Part shown: piece by piece, positions 32,716 through 60,533 of the stretch
Layout of the letters: each line of letters begins with the position of its first letter
How positions within the stretch are numbered: position 1 is the stretch's first letter
Assembly: GCA_017459425.1 (NCBI GenBank)
Contig: JAFUCZ010000034.1
Span: 3,117-67,116 of the forward strand
Direction: 5' to 3'
DNA length: 64,000 bases
DNA from: Bacilli bacterium
GTDB taxonomy: Bacteria; Bacillota_I; Bacilli_A; RF39; UBA660
Translations under genes and position numbers: made by a program
Notes under the pieces: model-generated
What the model was told of the DNA's origin: nothing
Seen by the model: only the letters and a program-made list of their open reading frames with translations
Databases searched by the model: none

Positions 32716-32799
32716 GTTATCACCCATAAAATAATATGTATAAGTAAAATAAATATTCCAAATTAATTAAAAATATATTATAATATTATTGGTGGTAAT

Positions 32800-32907
32800 A
32801 TGAAAAAGAAAAAACATAAGATAAGTGGTCAACAAATATTTGCAATATTTGCTTTAATTGCAACTATAGCAATGTTTTTAACTTCAATTCTTACTTATAT
32901 GTTATAA
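32800..32907 (+). CDS. small membrane protein (35 aa, MKKKKHKISGQQIFAIFALIATIAMFLTSILTYML)
   Basis: GGTGGT RBS, upstream TATAAT, and a terminator immediately downstream. Below the ORF track cutoff. Confidence 0.45.
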   Translation: MKKKKHKISGQQIFAIFALIATIAMFLTSILTYML

Positions 32908-32913
32908 TCAAAA

Positions 32914-32945
32914 AAACTATAATGTATTTCATTATAGTTTTTATT
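32914..32945. terminator. bidirectional terminator
   Basis: AAACTATAATG-TATTT-CATTATAGTTT, an 11-bp stem flanked by an A-run and a T-run. Confidence 0.8.
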
Positions 32946-56508: not shown

Positions 56509-57168
56509 TTATTTATTTTTTAAGAATTTTACAAATGATTTTCCTTTAGAATTACTAATATCCACTTTACTAGATAAATTAACTTTGAAAAAGGATTCTA
56601 TTTTACTAAATTCGTCTATTGAAAGTGAATCAACAAAATTAAATTGAATTAACTCAATTAATTTATCGTAATATAATTCTATACCTTGTTGATTTTTGTT
56701 TAATTCTTTTGATTTTAATAAGTCCTTTAATTCATTTAGTTTTTCTTCCTTTTTAGTAATATCTTCAGGAGCAATTTTATTAAATTCTTGATTTATTAAA
56801 TTTATTCTATCGTCTATATTTGGTTTAGTAGTAGTATCATAATTTATAATTTGATCTATAGCTTTTGAATTGTCATTTAAAAGTTGATTTATTAATTCAA
56901 CTAAATATGGTGGCTTATACTCATCATAACTATATAAATAAATATCTCTTACTTCTTCAAAATATTCCTTTTGTTCTCCAGTACGAGTATATGTATAATT
57001 TTTTATAATTTTATTAGTAAATCTTGGGGGAAAATCACTTGCATACTCTACATGTTCTATAAAACTACAATTATTTATAATTTCATTTTTTAATTTTTCA
57101 AGTTCATCTTTATCAAAATCAATTTGATATTTTTCAATTATGTCGTCATTATTTCTAAAATAAATCAT
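56509..57168 (-). CDS. hypothetical protein (219 aa)
   Basis: GGAGGG RBS before ATG 57168. No motif recognised. Terminator hairpin TATCAA/TTGATA just downstream. Confidence 0.55.
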   Translation of the reverse strand: MIYFRNNDDIIEKYQIDFDKDELEKLKNEIINNCSFIEHVEYASDFPPRFTNKIIKNYTYTRTGEQKEYFEEVRDIYLYSYDEYKPPYLVELINQLLNDNSKAIDQIINYDTTTKPNIDDRINLINQEFNKIAPEDITKKEEKLNELKDLLKSKELNKNQQGIELYYDKLIELIQFNFVDSLSIDEFSKIESFFKVNLSSKVDISNSKGKSFVKFLKNK

Positions 57169-57190
57169 ATAAACACCCTCCATTTTATGA

Positions 57191-57415
57191 TTACACTTGT
57201 TTAATGTATTTTAAATATAGATTATATTCTTCTTTTCCTTCATCTCTTAATAAGTAATTTTTTCTTTCTTGAAACCATTTTTCTGTTTCAAAAAACATCT
57301 CTAATATATCTTTTAAATTATCGCACTAAGACTGTAAATCATATAAAATATTATCAGTTTTAAAGTTATTTAATTTTATATTTTATAAAATGTAATCTCT
57401 TTGATATTTTTTCAT
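57191..57415 (-). pseudogene. disrupted small ORF (75 codons in one frame with two internal stops)
   Basis: GGGAAGAGG RBS, then ATG. The frame reads MKKYQRDYIL*NIKLNNFKTDNILYDLQS*CDNLKDILEMFFETEKWFQERKNYLLRDEGKEEYNLYLKYIKQV*. Confidence 0.4.
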
Positions 57416-57648
57416 TATACTGCCTCTTCCCTATTCACATATTTTTAATTATAACTTGTTTATATAAATATATTATACAAAAAAATTATAGGTTTATCAA
57501 TTAATTTATCACATAAACTAAAATACAAACTCGAACTAAGTTTGAGTAACAATTAATCTGGTATGGACAAATAGTATATCCATAAACTTAGAAATAGTTG
57601 ATAAACAACTAATTCAATTTAATAATAACATAAATGTTCAAATATATA

Positions 57649-57677
57649 TTGTGCCCCGAACATATATTTGGTATAAT
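57649..57677 (+). promoter_or_regulatory. promoter of the toxin-like peptide gene
   Basis: TTGTGC, 17 nt spacer, extended -10 TGGTATAAT. Confidence 0.6.
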
Positions 57678-57740
57678 TGTTTTGGAATACTTAATAAGTT
57701 GGGTGCTACCACATTCTTGAAATGGAAGGTGGTGATGCAT

Positions 57741-57824
57741 ATGAGTAAGAAAGATTTTTTAATCTGTATCTTGCTATTTATCATCCTTTTACTTATAGCA
57801 TTACTATTTGTAATACTAAAATAA
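57741..57824 (+). CDS. type I toxin-like hydrophobic peptide (27 aa, MSKKDFLICILLFIILLLIALLFVILK)
   Basis: GGAAGGTGG RBS 8 nt upstream. A single TM helix between charged ends. Below the ORF track cutoff. Confidence 0.55.
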   Translation: MSKKDFLICILLFIILLLIALLFVILK

Positions 57825-57902
57825 GAGAAGCACCTAACTCAGCAATGAATTAGGTGCCAACCAAATTTTGGATAACACTCAACACTGCAATATTAAGTGT
57901 TC
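57818..57902 (-). ncRNA. candidate antisense antitoxin RNA overlapping the 3' end of the peptide gene
   Basis: A minus-strand -10 TACAAT (57914-57909, poor -35). The hairpin GCACCTAA/TTAGGTGC (57857-57830) is followed on the minus strand by TTCTCTTATTTT. Confidence 0.3.
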
Positions 57903-57908
57903 CTTTTT
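57881..57908 (+). terminator. terminator of the peptide mRNA
   Basis: AACACT-GCAATATTA-AGTGTT followed by CCTTTTT. Confidence 0.5.
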
Positions 57909-58007
57909 ATTGTATGAAGTTTTTCTTCACTACATACACAATAACATAAAAATGACTTTTTTTCAAGTCATTTTATTTAACTCGAAATGTTCGAGCAGAA
58001 TTCCTCT

Positions 58008-58084
58008 TGGTAGCGAGAGAGAGATTCGAACTCACGACCCCATGGGTATGAACCATGTGCTCTAGCCAACTGAGCTATCTCGCC
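58008..58084 (-). tRNA. tRNA with CAU anticodon (Met; Ile2-lysidine type cannot be excluded)
   Basis: Anticodon arm CATGG-TTCATAC-CCATG, D arm GCTC..GAGC, TTCGAAT T loop, encoded CCA. One T-T mismatch in the T stem and G1-U72. Confidence 0.85.
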
Positions 58085-58147
58085 ATAAAAAAGTAAGGCA
58101 AAATAATAATATCATATTTAGCCTACTTTGGCAATAATTTTTTAAAT

Positions 58148-58984
58148 TTATTTTGAATTTTTTAAATTATAACTTTTTAATGTATTTTTAAGTAACATTG
58201 TAACTGTCATTGGTCCTACTCCACCAGGAACTGGTGTTATTAAAGATGCTTTTTTACTTACATTATCAAAATCAACATCACCGCAAAGACCACTATTTAT
58301 AGTATTTATTCCAACATCTATTACAACTGCGCCTTCTTTTACATAATCTTTAGTTATAAACTTAGGATTACCCATAGCTGCTACTAAAATATCAGCTTGT
58401 AAAGTCATCTTCTTTAGATCAGATGTTTTAGTATGACAAACAGTTACGGTAGCATTTTCATTTAAAAATAAATGCATTAAAGGCTTGCCTACTAAATTAC
58501 TTCTTCCAACAATAACAACATTTTTACCTTCAATTTTAACTTCACTTCTTTTTAAAAGTTCAATTATACCAAGTGGTGTACAAGAAGTAAGTGGATCTTT
58601 ATTTGTGACAAGTCTTCCGATGTTTCTGTCTGTAAGTCCATCTACATCTTTGCTAGGTAAAATTAAATTAATTAATTTTTTTTCGTTAAATTTATCTGGT
58701 AAAGGTAATTGAATCATTATGCCATCTACATATTCATCATTGTTTAGTTCTTTTATTTTATTAACAATTTCTCTTTCGTCTGCTGTTTCATCATAGTGAT
58801 ATAAATTGAAATTAATACCAACTTCAAGTGCGGCTTTTTGCTTTGCAGATACGTATTTATTACTATCTTCTCTATTGCCAATTTGTATTACACTAAGTCC
58901 TGGTTTAATAAAACAATTTTTTACTTCTGCTTTTAATTCTGCTTTTATTTCTTCACTTATTTTTTTTCCATCAATTATTTTCAT
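58148..58984 (-). CDS. folD: bifunctional methylenetetrahydrofolate dehydrogenase/cyclohydrolase
   Basis: YVSAKQKA, GRSNLVGKP, PVPGGVGPMT. Confidence 0.95.
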   Translation of the reverse strand: MKIIDGKKISEEIKAELKAEVKNCFIKPGLSVIQIGNREDSNKYVSAKQKAALEVGINFNLYHYDETADEREIVNKIKELNNDEYVDGIMIQLPLPDKFNEKKLINLILPSKDVDGLTDRNIGRLVTNKDPLTSCTPLGIIELLKRSEVKIEGKNVVIVGRSNLVGKPLMHLFLNENATVTVCHTKTSDLKKMTLQADILVAAMGNPKFITKDYVKEGAVVIDVGINTINSGLCGDVDFDNVSKKASLITPVPGGVGPMTVTMLLKNTLKSYNLKNSK

Positions 58985-60261: not shown

Positions 60262-60467
60262 CAAAAAAACAAAAAAATATACATTTCATTTACAGAAATG
60301 CATAAAAAATGTCTAGAGATATCTTAACGATAAAAACCTGATCTTCCAGGTGGGCATCACATGATAGACTTAAGGATCCTAAATAAATTAGTATTCAACA
60401 CCGCCTATCAATTAGATTCCCAATCGTTATAATTAGTAGGTTTTTCTTAATTGATATCCTCTAGACA
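60262..60467 (-). ncRNA. structured RNA with its own promoter and terminators, 6S RNA-like
   Basis: Extended -10 TGATATAAT at 60481-60473. The predicted +1 sits at the 5' arm of a long interrupted closing helix: GTCTAGAGGATATC with GATATCTCTAGAC, TTAA/TTAA, AAAAACCT/AGGTTTTT. There is a large internal bubble, then a U-run, then a second hairpin terminator at 60303-60279. Confidence 0.5.
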
Positions 60468-60533
60468 CTTATATTATATCATATTTTTTTAAAATTATGC
60501 ATAATTTTAAAAATAATTATAAAACTTTACACA

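Follow-up and report, generated by a model that had tools for sequence, protein, structure and literature searches.

A compact two-gene module occupies positions 57649–57974 of a 64,000-nt stretch of DNA from a Bacilli bacterium of the UBA660 lineage (assembly GCA_017459425.1, contig JAFUCZ010000034.1), which is referred to here as the window and has a GC content of 24%. The locus is probably a chromosomal type I toxin–antitoxin-like module of a previously undescribed family, belonging to the Gram-positive class in which two convergent genes overlap at their 3′ ends. A first-pass annotation of the window had proposed a type I toxin–antitoxin-like reading with the layout of txpA/RatA or bsrG/SR4, and all the computational tests applied here agree with it. 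The observation is largely real, and the locus is a good type I candidate that we file as a new family of a known kind. The whole case was built by sequence comparison, from which the transcript ends, the pathway of RNA–RNA interaction, the involvement of an RNase, and the toxicity of the peptide were inferred. The resemblance to type I systems lies in a hydrophobic peptide of <60 aa, under purifying selection and encoded on a short stand-alone mRNA with its own promoter and U-tract; in a predicted noncoding antisense gene with ~90 nt of perfect complementarity to this mRNA; and in a predicted inert state of the mRNA, in which the Shine–Dalgarno (SD) sequence is sequestered and the 5′ end is closed onto the 3′ end.

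The toxin candidate is encoded by an open reading frame (ORF) of 27 codons and a TAA stop codon on the plus strand (57741–57824; MSKKDFLICILLFIILLLIALLFVILK; TAA at 57822–57824). As had been recognized in the first-pass annotation, the product is predicted to form a single transmembrane helix with charged ends. The segment is very hydrophobic and composed almost purely of Leu, Ile, Phe, and Val, with KKD as its N-terminal flank and K as its C-terminal flank. To collect homologues, one genome per species (185,579 species) was scanned with the DNA pattern TTTGTAATNNTAAAN{4,14}CACCTAACTC. The scan gave 69 loci, 68 of which were confirmed by a profile built from the alignment, and the family extends over 63 species-level assemblies. 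L053, from an Actinomycetes metagenome-assembled genome (MAG), was rejected as a chance pattern match without a profile hit. The collection contains 43 distinct ORF sequences encoding 39 peptides, all but a few of 27 codons, and the variable sites number 20, 12, and 25 at codon positions 1, 2, and 3, respectively. The pooled ratio of nonsynonymous to synonymous polymorphism (pN/pS) of the whole ORF was 0.24, compared with 0.87 and 1.79 in the other frames; for codons 2–22, which are unconstrained by the search pattern, it was 0.22, compared with 1.39 and 1.22 off-frame. These values indicate that the ORF is a real coding sequence under purifying selection. An unconserved ORF within conserved surroundings had been named at the outset as an observation that would speak against a toxin gene; what is found is an ORF conserved as a protein. 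Ser2 is encoded by AGT in one main subfamily and by TCA in the other. The in-frame ATG at 57735 lies too near the SD sequence and is absent in subfamily B; because subfamily B has no upstream in-frame ATG, the start was assigned to the methionine of MSKK. Some copies start with GTG or TTG. At one locus (L013, 456–563; protein P0002), a 5-nt deletion removes the stop codon, and the peptide reads into the hairpin that follows (…LLFVILKEAPNSTLR, 35 aa), with all RNA elements kept.

Nearly all carriers are labeled as uncultured low-GC Bacilli, Tenericutes, Erysipelotrichaceae, or Mycoplasma sp., and they derive from rabbit, ruminant, mouse, and human gut MAGs. Two carriers have misfitting taxonomic labels, L037 (CAYOYB01, Muribaculaceae) and L072 (Clostridium sp.), and these are either mis-binned contigs in MAGs or rare transfers. 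A protein search with the 57-aa read-through ORF found five proteins (P0001–P0005) that are alike over the C-terminal MSKKDFL...LLFVILK part only, whereas their N-terminal parts are unrelated. The contexts of the five genes also differ, with positions between gyrA and gyrB and in the vicinity of genes for acetyltransferase, AraC, and Mob_Pre. In the family as a whole, the contexts are varied and include gyrA/gyrB, cysS, relA-ffh, and addAB. The contig of the window recurs in several metagenome assemblies, in which no gene is called between folD and a 224-aa ORF; ERZ28653772 and ERZ27256836 are among the samples that contain it. Searches of the window for a second copy of the module with blastn, tblastn, and nhmmer (the family profile and paralogue classes C–G) returned only 57684–57913. 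The peptide has no family in Pfam, NCBIfam, or PHROGs. Rfam searches on both strands, at the gathering threshold and at E ≤ 10, gave matches only to tRNA, to 6S RNA, and, by chance, to microRNAs and small RNAs. Neither the module DNA nor the pattern had a match among PLSDB plasmids, INPHARED phages, or IMG/VR viral contigs, and a plasmid or prophage origin was rejected for now on this basis. T1TAdb holds 24 families from cultured species, and a description of such a family was not found in the literature searched.

The toxin gene has a promoter at 57649–57677 of the plus strand, read directly from the sequence as a -35 element TTGTGC (57649–57654), a 17-nt spacer, and an extended -10 element TGgTATAAT (57669–57677), in agreement with the first-pass annotation. 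It was unlisted by the consensus scan, and its -35 element matches the consensus at 3/6 positions only. Homologues carry a promoter at the same place (TTGnnn-17-TGnTATAAT), scoring at least 9/12 in 42 of 60 loci and TG-extended in 40 of 60. The predicted mRNA of ~225 nt (57684–57909) would start at a G located 7 nt past the -10 element and end at the U-tract UUUUUAUU (57904–57911), which is kept as CC-U(5–9)-AUUU in most homologues. Its leader is 57 nt long, and the ribosome-binding site noted in the first pass corresponds to the SD sequence aaGGTGGtga (57726–57735), 8 nt 5′ of the ATG at 57741. The window mRNA matches the family profile with an nhmmer E value of 1e-58. At several loci (L015, L030, L044, L047, L056, L064, L078, and others), a conserved block (C)AAGTGTGTTTTCTAAATTGTCATAAATTT, absent from the window, lies ~30–90 nt 5′ of the toxin -35 element; this block might act as a second promoter (TTGTCA-17-TATTGT) or be an imperfect palindrome resembling an operator.

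The mRNA is predicted to be highly structured. The minimum free energy (MFE) of the plus-strand RNA 57684–57910 was -71.5 kcal/mol, compared with -40.7 ± 3.7 kcal/mol for shuffled sequences (z = -8.4). A helix of 21–23 bp closes the molecule, in which the very first nucleotides pair with the segment located directly 5′ of the U-tract. Its 5′ strand (57684–57705) consists of GGAAUACUUAAUA (57684–57696) and box5, GUUGGGUG (57698–57705), which pair with 57876–57903. The 3′ strand lies within 57870–57903 and consists of box3, CACUCAAC (57876–57883), and UAUUAAGUGUUCC (57891–57903). This helix was present in the MFE structure of the window and in those of all 46 homologues folded one by one, and compensatory changes were found at alignment pairs 7–236, 9–234, 26–210, 1–242, and 3–240. 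For 46 distinct sequences (alignment A2), RNAalifold gave a consensus of six helices and 55 pairs: H1, between the 5′ and 3′ ends; H2, between GUUGGGUG and CACUCAAC; H3, between the SD sequence and the ORF; two small hairpins in the ORF; and a hairpin after the stop codon. In this consensus, 98.6% of the cells are paired, compared with 37–47% when the partners are slid, and 8 pairs show two-sided changes, compared with 0–3 in the slid controls; none of 500 shuffles matched the observed pairing or covariation.

The SD sequence is predicted to be masked in either of two ways. In the window, ACCAC (57708–57712) pairs with GUGGU (57729–57733) in a 5′ stem-loop (57708–57733) that covers the SD core GGUGG (57728–57732). 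The combination of GGUGG with the anti-SD CCAC in the window, as opposed to GGAGG with CCUC in most homologues, is a two-sided compensatory change. Alternatively, an anti-SD inside the ORF (AUCAUCCUUU, 57780–57789) takes part in H3, where the SD GGAGGUGAU pairs with AUCAUCCUU at 97.6%; the window copy of H3 carries a U–U mismatch. Of 46 homologues folded individually, 39 had a paired SD sequence, 27 via the upstream anti-SD and 12 via the ORF-internal one, the latter number being that of the MFE structures containing H3. As to the 3′ end, the distal hairpin reported in the first pass (57881–57901) is present in the window with a stem of 6 bp, but homologues do not preserve it as a local hairpin, and it was rejected as a local terminator because of C–A mismatches in the stem of many homologues. 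Since the conserved feature is the 3′ strand of H1 abutting the U-tract, we infer that this long-range helix is likely the terminator stem of the toxin mRNA.

The opposite strand is predicted to encode an antisense, antitoxin-like RNA of ~112 nt (57818–57931, minus strand; ends predicted from promoter and terminator) composed of the stem-loops SL1, SL2, and SL3 followed by a U-tract. Over about the final 90 nt of the mRNA, the two transcripts would be fully complementary, an overlap (57818–57909) that takes in the stop codon and the two codons before it; no minus-strand ORF of ≥20 aa lies within 57818–57931. Folding of the minus-strand RNA 57932–57820 gave the three stem-loops with z = -6.4. 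The convergent overlap, put at about 85 nt in the first pass, would be ~90 nt, and the RNA itself would be ~112 nt long and start at ~57931, instead of being ~85 nt long. Its predicted promoter, P1 (57966–57938), was found by the promoter scan and consists of a -35 element TTGAAA (57966–57961), a 17-nt spacer, and the -10 region TGt+TATTGT (57946–57938). In alignment A3 (55 sequences), the minus strand reads CTTGnnA-17-TGnTAnnAT at this position. Among 60 loci, P1 scores at least 9/12 in 51, is TG-extended in 48, and has the 17-nt spacer in 53, the -35 TTG in 51, and the -10 TAnnnT in 57; it is retained both in loci with unrelated spacer sequence and in loci without a nearby tRNA. The first-pass annotation had placed the antisense promoter at a minus-strand -10 box, TACAAT (57914–57909). 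This box is present, but it has a poor -35 element and coincides with the complement of the plus-strand U-tract, and we have demoted it to a possible secondary start in favor of the better and conserved P1. In homologues, the corresponding position is a conserved TAAAAT, for which the best -35 element matches only 2–3/6 positions in 52 of 55 loci.

Of the three stem-loops, SL1 (57914–57931) is a small 5′ stem-loop, GUGAAG-AAAAA-CUUCAU, and its stem varies among homologues (UGAAG/CUUCA, CAAG/CUUG, GCAA/UUGC, and UGAAA/UUUCA). Mean stabilities are -4.6 kcal/mol for the minus-strand stem-loop and -3.6 kcal/mol for its plus-strand counterpart, and several variants fold on the minus strand only, via G–U pairs. 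SL2 (57870–57903) has 13 pairs and is 97.8% paired. U–G pairs occur at three of its positions in 54, 41, and 14 of 55 sequences, and because the plus-strand equivalents would be A–C mismatches, the SL2 fold is specific to the minus strand. SL3, a 13-bp hairpin at 57829–57858 (GCACCUAACUCAGCAAUGAAUUAGGUGC), corresponds to the proximal hairpin with a minus-strand U-run described in the first pass. On the minus strand, it is an intrinsic terminator followed by UCUCUUAUUUUAG (57828–57815), and on the plus strand, it is the hairpin that follows the stop codon in the 3′ untranslated region. It is 99% paired in 46–55 homologues, and its closing pair is G–C in 21 and U–A in 22 sequences and C–G in class C. 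A terminator scan of 57000–58400 found this site, on the minus strand, as the sole terminator-like site, whereas 0.3 sites were expected from shuffles. The module is bounded by an AT-rich hairpin (57949–57974; AAAAUGACUU-loop-AAGUCAUUUU) with U-runs on both strands, the loop of which carries the -35 element of P1. Its stem covaries in homologues, including ACGACUU/AAGUCGU and GCGUACUU/AAGUGCGU, and it is missing at some loci that retain P1. It may serve as an insulator or as a terminator of the tRNA transcript.

The elements of the two units change together. The family falls into six sequence classes, with joint changes in the 5′ end and 3′ end, in box5 and box3, and in box5 and the 5′ arm of the post-stop hairpin. 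In classes D–F, both strands of the long-distance helix are altered together. When C, A, or G follows GGGUG (box5, GUUGGGUG, with its variable base), the first base of the hairpin arm is G, U, or C, respectively. Matrices of duplex energies are diagonal-dominant, with values of -12.6 to -18 kcal/mol for cognate and -0.1 to -14.8 kcal/mol for noncognate combinations. These complementarities leave box5 three potential partners: box3, giving the closed form, and the hairpin arm of either the mRNA or the antisense RNA. The profile search revealed additional modules, in tandem or nearby, at 13 loci, and strongly diverged paralogues (MNKKDFLILSLVIIIFLLLFLLFIVLI; MKNKDLLISFLILIIILLIVSLMILCIKK; MAKKDFLIFALIIIILLLIILLFK; MTKREFSQFIIILLLFLVVIILLLK) have ORFs of 24–29 codons with the same charge–hydrophobic–charge design. 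Arrays of 2–3 modules lie 200–600 bp apart at L034, L046, L065, L068, L060, L070, L038, and L077, and they often combine a class A/B copy with a diverged class C–F copy bearing a matching box5, hairpin, and 3′-end specificity of its own. This suggests that the antisense RNAs of paralogues are insulated against cross-talk.

Decay of the module is asymmetric. Among the 60 complete loci, 40–44 have both units intact, and at least 8 have lost the ORF (by 5′ deletion, loss of the start codon, or a premature stop codon) while keeping the promoter and terminator of the antisense unit. No clear case of an intact toxin gene without the antisense unit was found among them. At four loci, an intact toxin gene seemed to lack a terminator, but only because the regular expression was too strict; their hairpin variants are visible in the alignment. 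Such an asymmetry is what a toxin–antitoxin relationship predicts for a putative toxin and its antisense partner.

The module lies behind a tRNA-Met(cat) gene of the minus strand (58084–58008), as had been annotated, which has a trailer hairpin, CTCGAA..TTCGAG, at 57995–57981. The surroundings had been described as poor in genes, with a decayed ORF, and as typical of mobile-element remnants. This description is not supported: the adjacent ORFs of 224 and 99 aa are intact (neither has a Pfam or PHROG match), the neighbors other than these and tRNA-Met (a cytidine/dCMP-type deaminase, folD, glyA, and 6S RNA) are housekeeping genes, and no mobile-element signature was seen. In the family, 25 of ~68 loci lie directly behind a complete tRNA or transfer-messenger RNA (tmRNA) gene whose 3′ end points at the module from a distance of ~40–70 nt past the antisense promoter. 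These genes represent no fewer than 10 identities: Leu-tag, Leu-caa, Leu-taa, Thr-ggt, Thr-cgt, Met, Lys-ctt, Arg-tct, Ala-tgc, and tmRNA. At other loci (L006/L066, L048, L073, L051, L064, L076, L028, L082, and L035), only an 8–20-nt 3′ fragment of a tRNA or tmRNA (TGGTGCGA.., TGGTGGAG..) occupies this position and is followed by unrelated DNA, which at L006 includes genes for HAD, Ppx-GppA, and a Mob_Pre relaxase. This is most simply read as the later insertion of an island into the tRNA gene, which parted the gene from the module, and the fragment looks like the distal repeat. In these lineages, many tRNA and tmRNA genes have a trailer in common, CCA-GATTGATAnnAAACTCGAA(loop)TTCGAGTTTT, which is present with or without the module and probably acts lineage-wide in tRNA termination or processing. 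The conserved spacer on the tRNA side was rejected as a part of the module or an attachment (att) arm because an identical trailer hairpin stands behind module-free tRNA genes, and a position of the module at the edge of an integrated island was rejected because the left flanks are housekeeping DNA with no integrase nearby. Within the window, the trailer was noted at 1154–1220 and 57981–58007, and the tRNA-Thr gene has the variant TGTTCGAATGCTCGAAC. Elsewhere in the window, the 6S RNA (60306–60470, minus strand; Rfam RF00013, 52.5 bits) lies between glyA and aspS-hisS and shares its strand with tRNA-Met, folD, and glyA. Another stand-alone hydrophobic ORF, of 35 aa (MKKKKHKISGQQIFAIFALIATIAMFLTSILTYML; 32800–32907, plus strand), lies between two minus-strand genes, with an SD sequence GGTGG, a TATAAT at 32778–32783, and an AT-rich hairpin with a U-run at ~32913–32945.

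Here, we propose a mechanism for the module based on the predicted folds and on the analogy with known systems. By analogy with txpA/RatA, bsrG/SR4, and par, the full-length mRNA would be translationally quiet, and its sequestered 5′ end would guard it against a 5′ exonuclease. The SD sequence would be masked by the upstream CCAC/CCUC or by the ORF-internal AUCAUCC, and the long-range helix probably doubles as the terminator stem. The antisense RNA may dock through complementary hairpin loops and zip into a long duplex, and the duplex would trigger cleavage by an RNase III-type enzyme and decay, both steps again by analogy; the duplex may also hold the leader closed through the contact between box5 and the hairpin arm. 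A drop in the level of the antisense RNA, through lower stability or weaker transcription, for example, would allow the peptide to be made and inserted into the membrane, and cell arrest or death would follow, as in the analogous systems.

Several points weigh against this reading. The transcript ends on both strands are predictions from the DNA alone, and the toxicity of the peptide and its rescue by the RNA are putative in hosts that are uncultured. No homology to any validated toxin or antitoxin was found in Rfam, Pfam, or NCBIfam. The search pattern fixes 22 nt, covering the 3′ end of the ORF and the hairpin arm, whose columns are therefore invariant by construction. The homologues are close relatives of one another, and several of the covariations trace back to a few independent events (subfamilies A, B, and C; classes D–F). 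Partners of box5 in cis and in trans would both fit the data. The window copy could itself be poorly expressed, since its SD sequence GGUGG and the -10 element TATTGT of P1 are both weaker than the family consensus.

An antisense-regulated small membrane protein with a regulatory or accessory role, without any part in addiction or growth arrest, is an unlikely alternative. Many small bacterial membrane proteins are benign regulators, the module resides in the core chromosome and not on plasmids or phages, and the structural evidence comprises only a conserved peptide gene and a conserved antisense partner. Such a protein, however, would not readily account for a stand-alone module with its own promoter and terminator that has no conserved protein-coding partner and occurs in varied contexts, for tandem and paralogous amplification, or for the repeated destruction of the ORF with the antisense unit kept. 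The three locks on translation (SD masking, 5′–3′ closure, and antisense) are typical for harmful products, and the peptide has neither polar nor motif residues that might hint at a specific partner. It is very unlikely that there is no functional antisense RNA at all, so that the minus-strand hairpin merely stops tRNA read-through, P1 is a chance match in AT-rich DNA, and control is exerted by the mRNA structure alone. A tRNA or tmRNA is indeed transcribed towards the module in the window and at 24 other loci, where a minus-strand terminator would be needed anyway, and promoter-like hexamers occur at chance level in DNA of 24% GC (9 found versus 11 expected). On the other hand, P1 is conserved in 51–57 of 60 loci, including the majority that have no adjacent tRNA and those with unrelated spacers; a separate U-run hairpin already stands between the tRNA and P1; SL1 covaries, and SL2 requires U–G pairs that exist in the minus-strand RNA only; and the whole minus-strand unit is retained in toxin-dead loci.

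We find it scarcely credible that the short ORF is incidental and that the locus is a structured noncoding RNA or a site in the DNA, for example, an att site or the scar left at a tRNA gene by an integrative element. The strong linkage to tRNA/tmRNA 3′ ends, the loci with tRNA 3′ fragments beside Mob_Pre relaxase DNA, and the very high nucleotide conservation even at some synonymous sites would fit such a site. The codon-position pattern and the pN/pS of 0.22, however, are found in the ORF frame only, and the SD sequence, start, and stop codons are conserved, with the diverged paralogues keeping a 24–29-codon ORF and the charge–hydrophobic–charge design. Moreover, the left flanks are housekeeping DNA with no integrase nearby, the spacer on the tRNA side is the lineage-wide trailer that occurs also without the module, and the plasmid, phage, and viral collections gave no match. 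Quite unlikely, but compatible with a toxin–antitoxin function, is the idea that the module is a ~330-bp unit that specifically colonizes the DNA behind tRNA/tmRNA terminators and whose antisense RNA acts cotranscriptionally. The antitoxin promoter would then be built into a bidirectional terminator hairpin, and the 5′ end of the toxin mRNA would be the upstream strand of its own terminator. Competition between the antisense RNA and the mRNA 5′ end for the 3′ strand would determine whether transcription terminates (closed, stable, and silent mRNA) or reads through (open and unstable mRNA), and the tRNA linkage would reflect a homing mechanism or a coupling of the antitoxin supply to tRNA-gene transcription.

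If the toxin–antitoxin reading is confirmed, the module would represent a well-defined type I family for a large, uncultured, genome-reduced branch of gut Bacilli, in which no such system has been catalogued and in which gene callers entirely overlook the 27-codon ORF. The ~70 natural variants and six co-evolving specificity classes offer material on how a toxin mRNA, its own 5′ end, and an antisense RNA compete for one 3′ segment. The DNA pattern and the alignment can be converted into a covariance model that flags such loci in MAGs. No current idea is overturned: the discovery of further type I families is to be expected, and the layout is that usual for Gram-positive bacteria.

The peptide had been likened to Fst, TxpA, BsrG, and PepA1. 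This likeness holds for the kind of molecule but does not extend to membership by sequence or motif. The layout, with the antisense gene on the 3′ side and an overlap of tens of nucleotides with the mRNA 3′ end that reaches the ORF, is shared with txpA/RatA, bsrG/SR4, bsrE/SR5, and yonT/SR6 of Bacillus subtilis, in which the SD sequence is also partly sequestered. The toxins of txpA, bsrG, bsrE, and yonT are peptides of 38–59 aa with their own conserved N-terminal motifs and are encoded on prophage or skin elements, whereas the peptide described here has 27 aa, shows no sequence similarity to them, and is encoded in the core chromosome behind tRNA genes. Searches of Pfam, NCBIfam, and Rfam gave no match to TxpA/RatA or BsrG/SR4. 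To our knowledge, a 5′–3′ helix that doubles as the terminator stem is not described for the B. subtilis systems. Gram-positive families with 3′ overlap, e.g., TxpA/RatA and the BsrE/G/H group, form a class in the description of T1TAdb.

The par system (Fst/RNA II) of the Enterococcus faecalis plasmid pAD1 features a 5′-SL over the SD sequence, a 5′-UH, a PXXXG(C) motif, a charged C-terminal tail, a shared bidirectional terminator, and the repeats DRa/DRb (PMC7472228). Convergent promoters and a toxin mRNA of ~230 nt are common to par and the module. A stem-loop masking the SD sequence (compare 5′-SL) and a helix hiding the extreme 5′ end (compare 5′-UH) are likewise shared, as a resemblance of design and not of homology, and both RNAs contain complementary hairpins that could start the interaction. 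The peptide differs from Fst and Ldr in that its 39 variants have no Pro or Gly in place of the PXXXG(C) motif and end in a single K, N, or I instead of a charged tail, and it matches neither Fst nor Ldr in Pfam or NCBIfam at E ≤ 10. Nor is there a shared bidirectional terminator: the hairpin at 57829–57858 has a U-run on the minus strand only, and the mRNA is predicted to extend ~50 nt further to its own U-tract. The overlap of Fst/RNA II spares the ORF (T1TAdb), whereas the overlap of ~90 nt here reaches the last codons. As to DRa/DRb, the module has no repeats around the start codon; a different second complementarity to the leader, which co-evolves, is plausible between box5 and the 5′ arm of the antisense hairpin.

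In Helicobacter pylori, the full-length toxin mRNA of aapA1/IsoA1 is locked by a long-distance interaction between its 5′ and 3′ ends. Such a lock and SD sequestration are shared by the module described here, by aapA1/IsoA1, and by hok/sok of plasmid R1, whose 3′-end fold-back element appears among the works cited in the T1TAdb reference list. In these Gram-negative hosts, however, the antisense RNA lies within the mRNA, at the 5′ region or leader, and activation proceeds by 3′ trimming, whereas the module has its antisense RNA on the 3′ side, over the 3′ strand of the long-distance helix itself, and lacks a mok-like leader ORF. SprA1/SprA1AS and SprA2/SprA2AS of Staphylococcus aureus, which are located on a pathogenicity island and have no sequence similarity to the module, combine a 3′-overlapping cis antisense RNA with action via a second, non-overlapping contact at the toxin leader or ribosome-binding site. 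The complementarity between box5 and the hairpin arm, a second contact to which co-evolution alone points here, could play an equivalent role.

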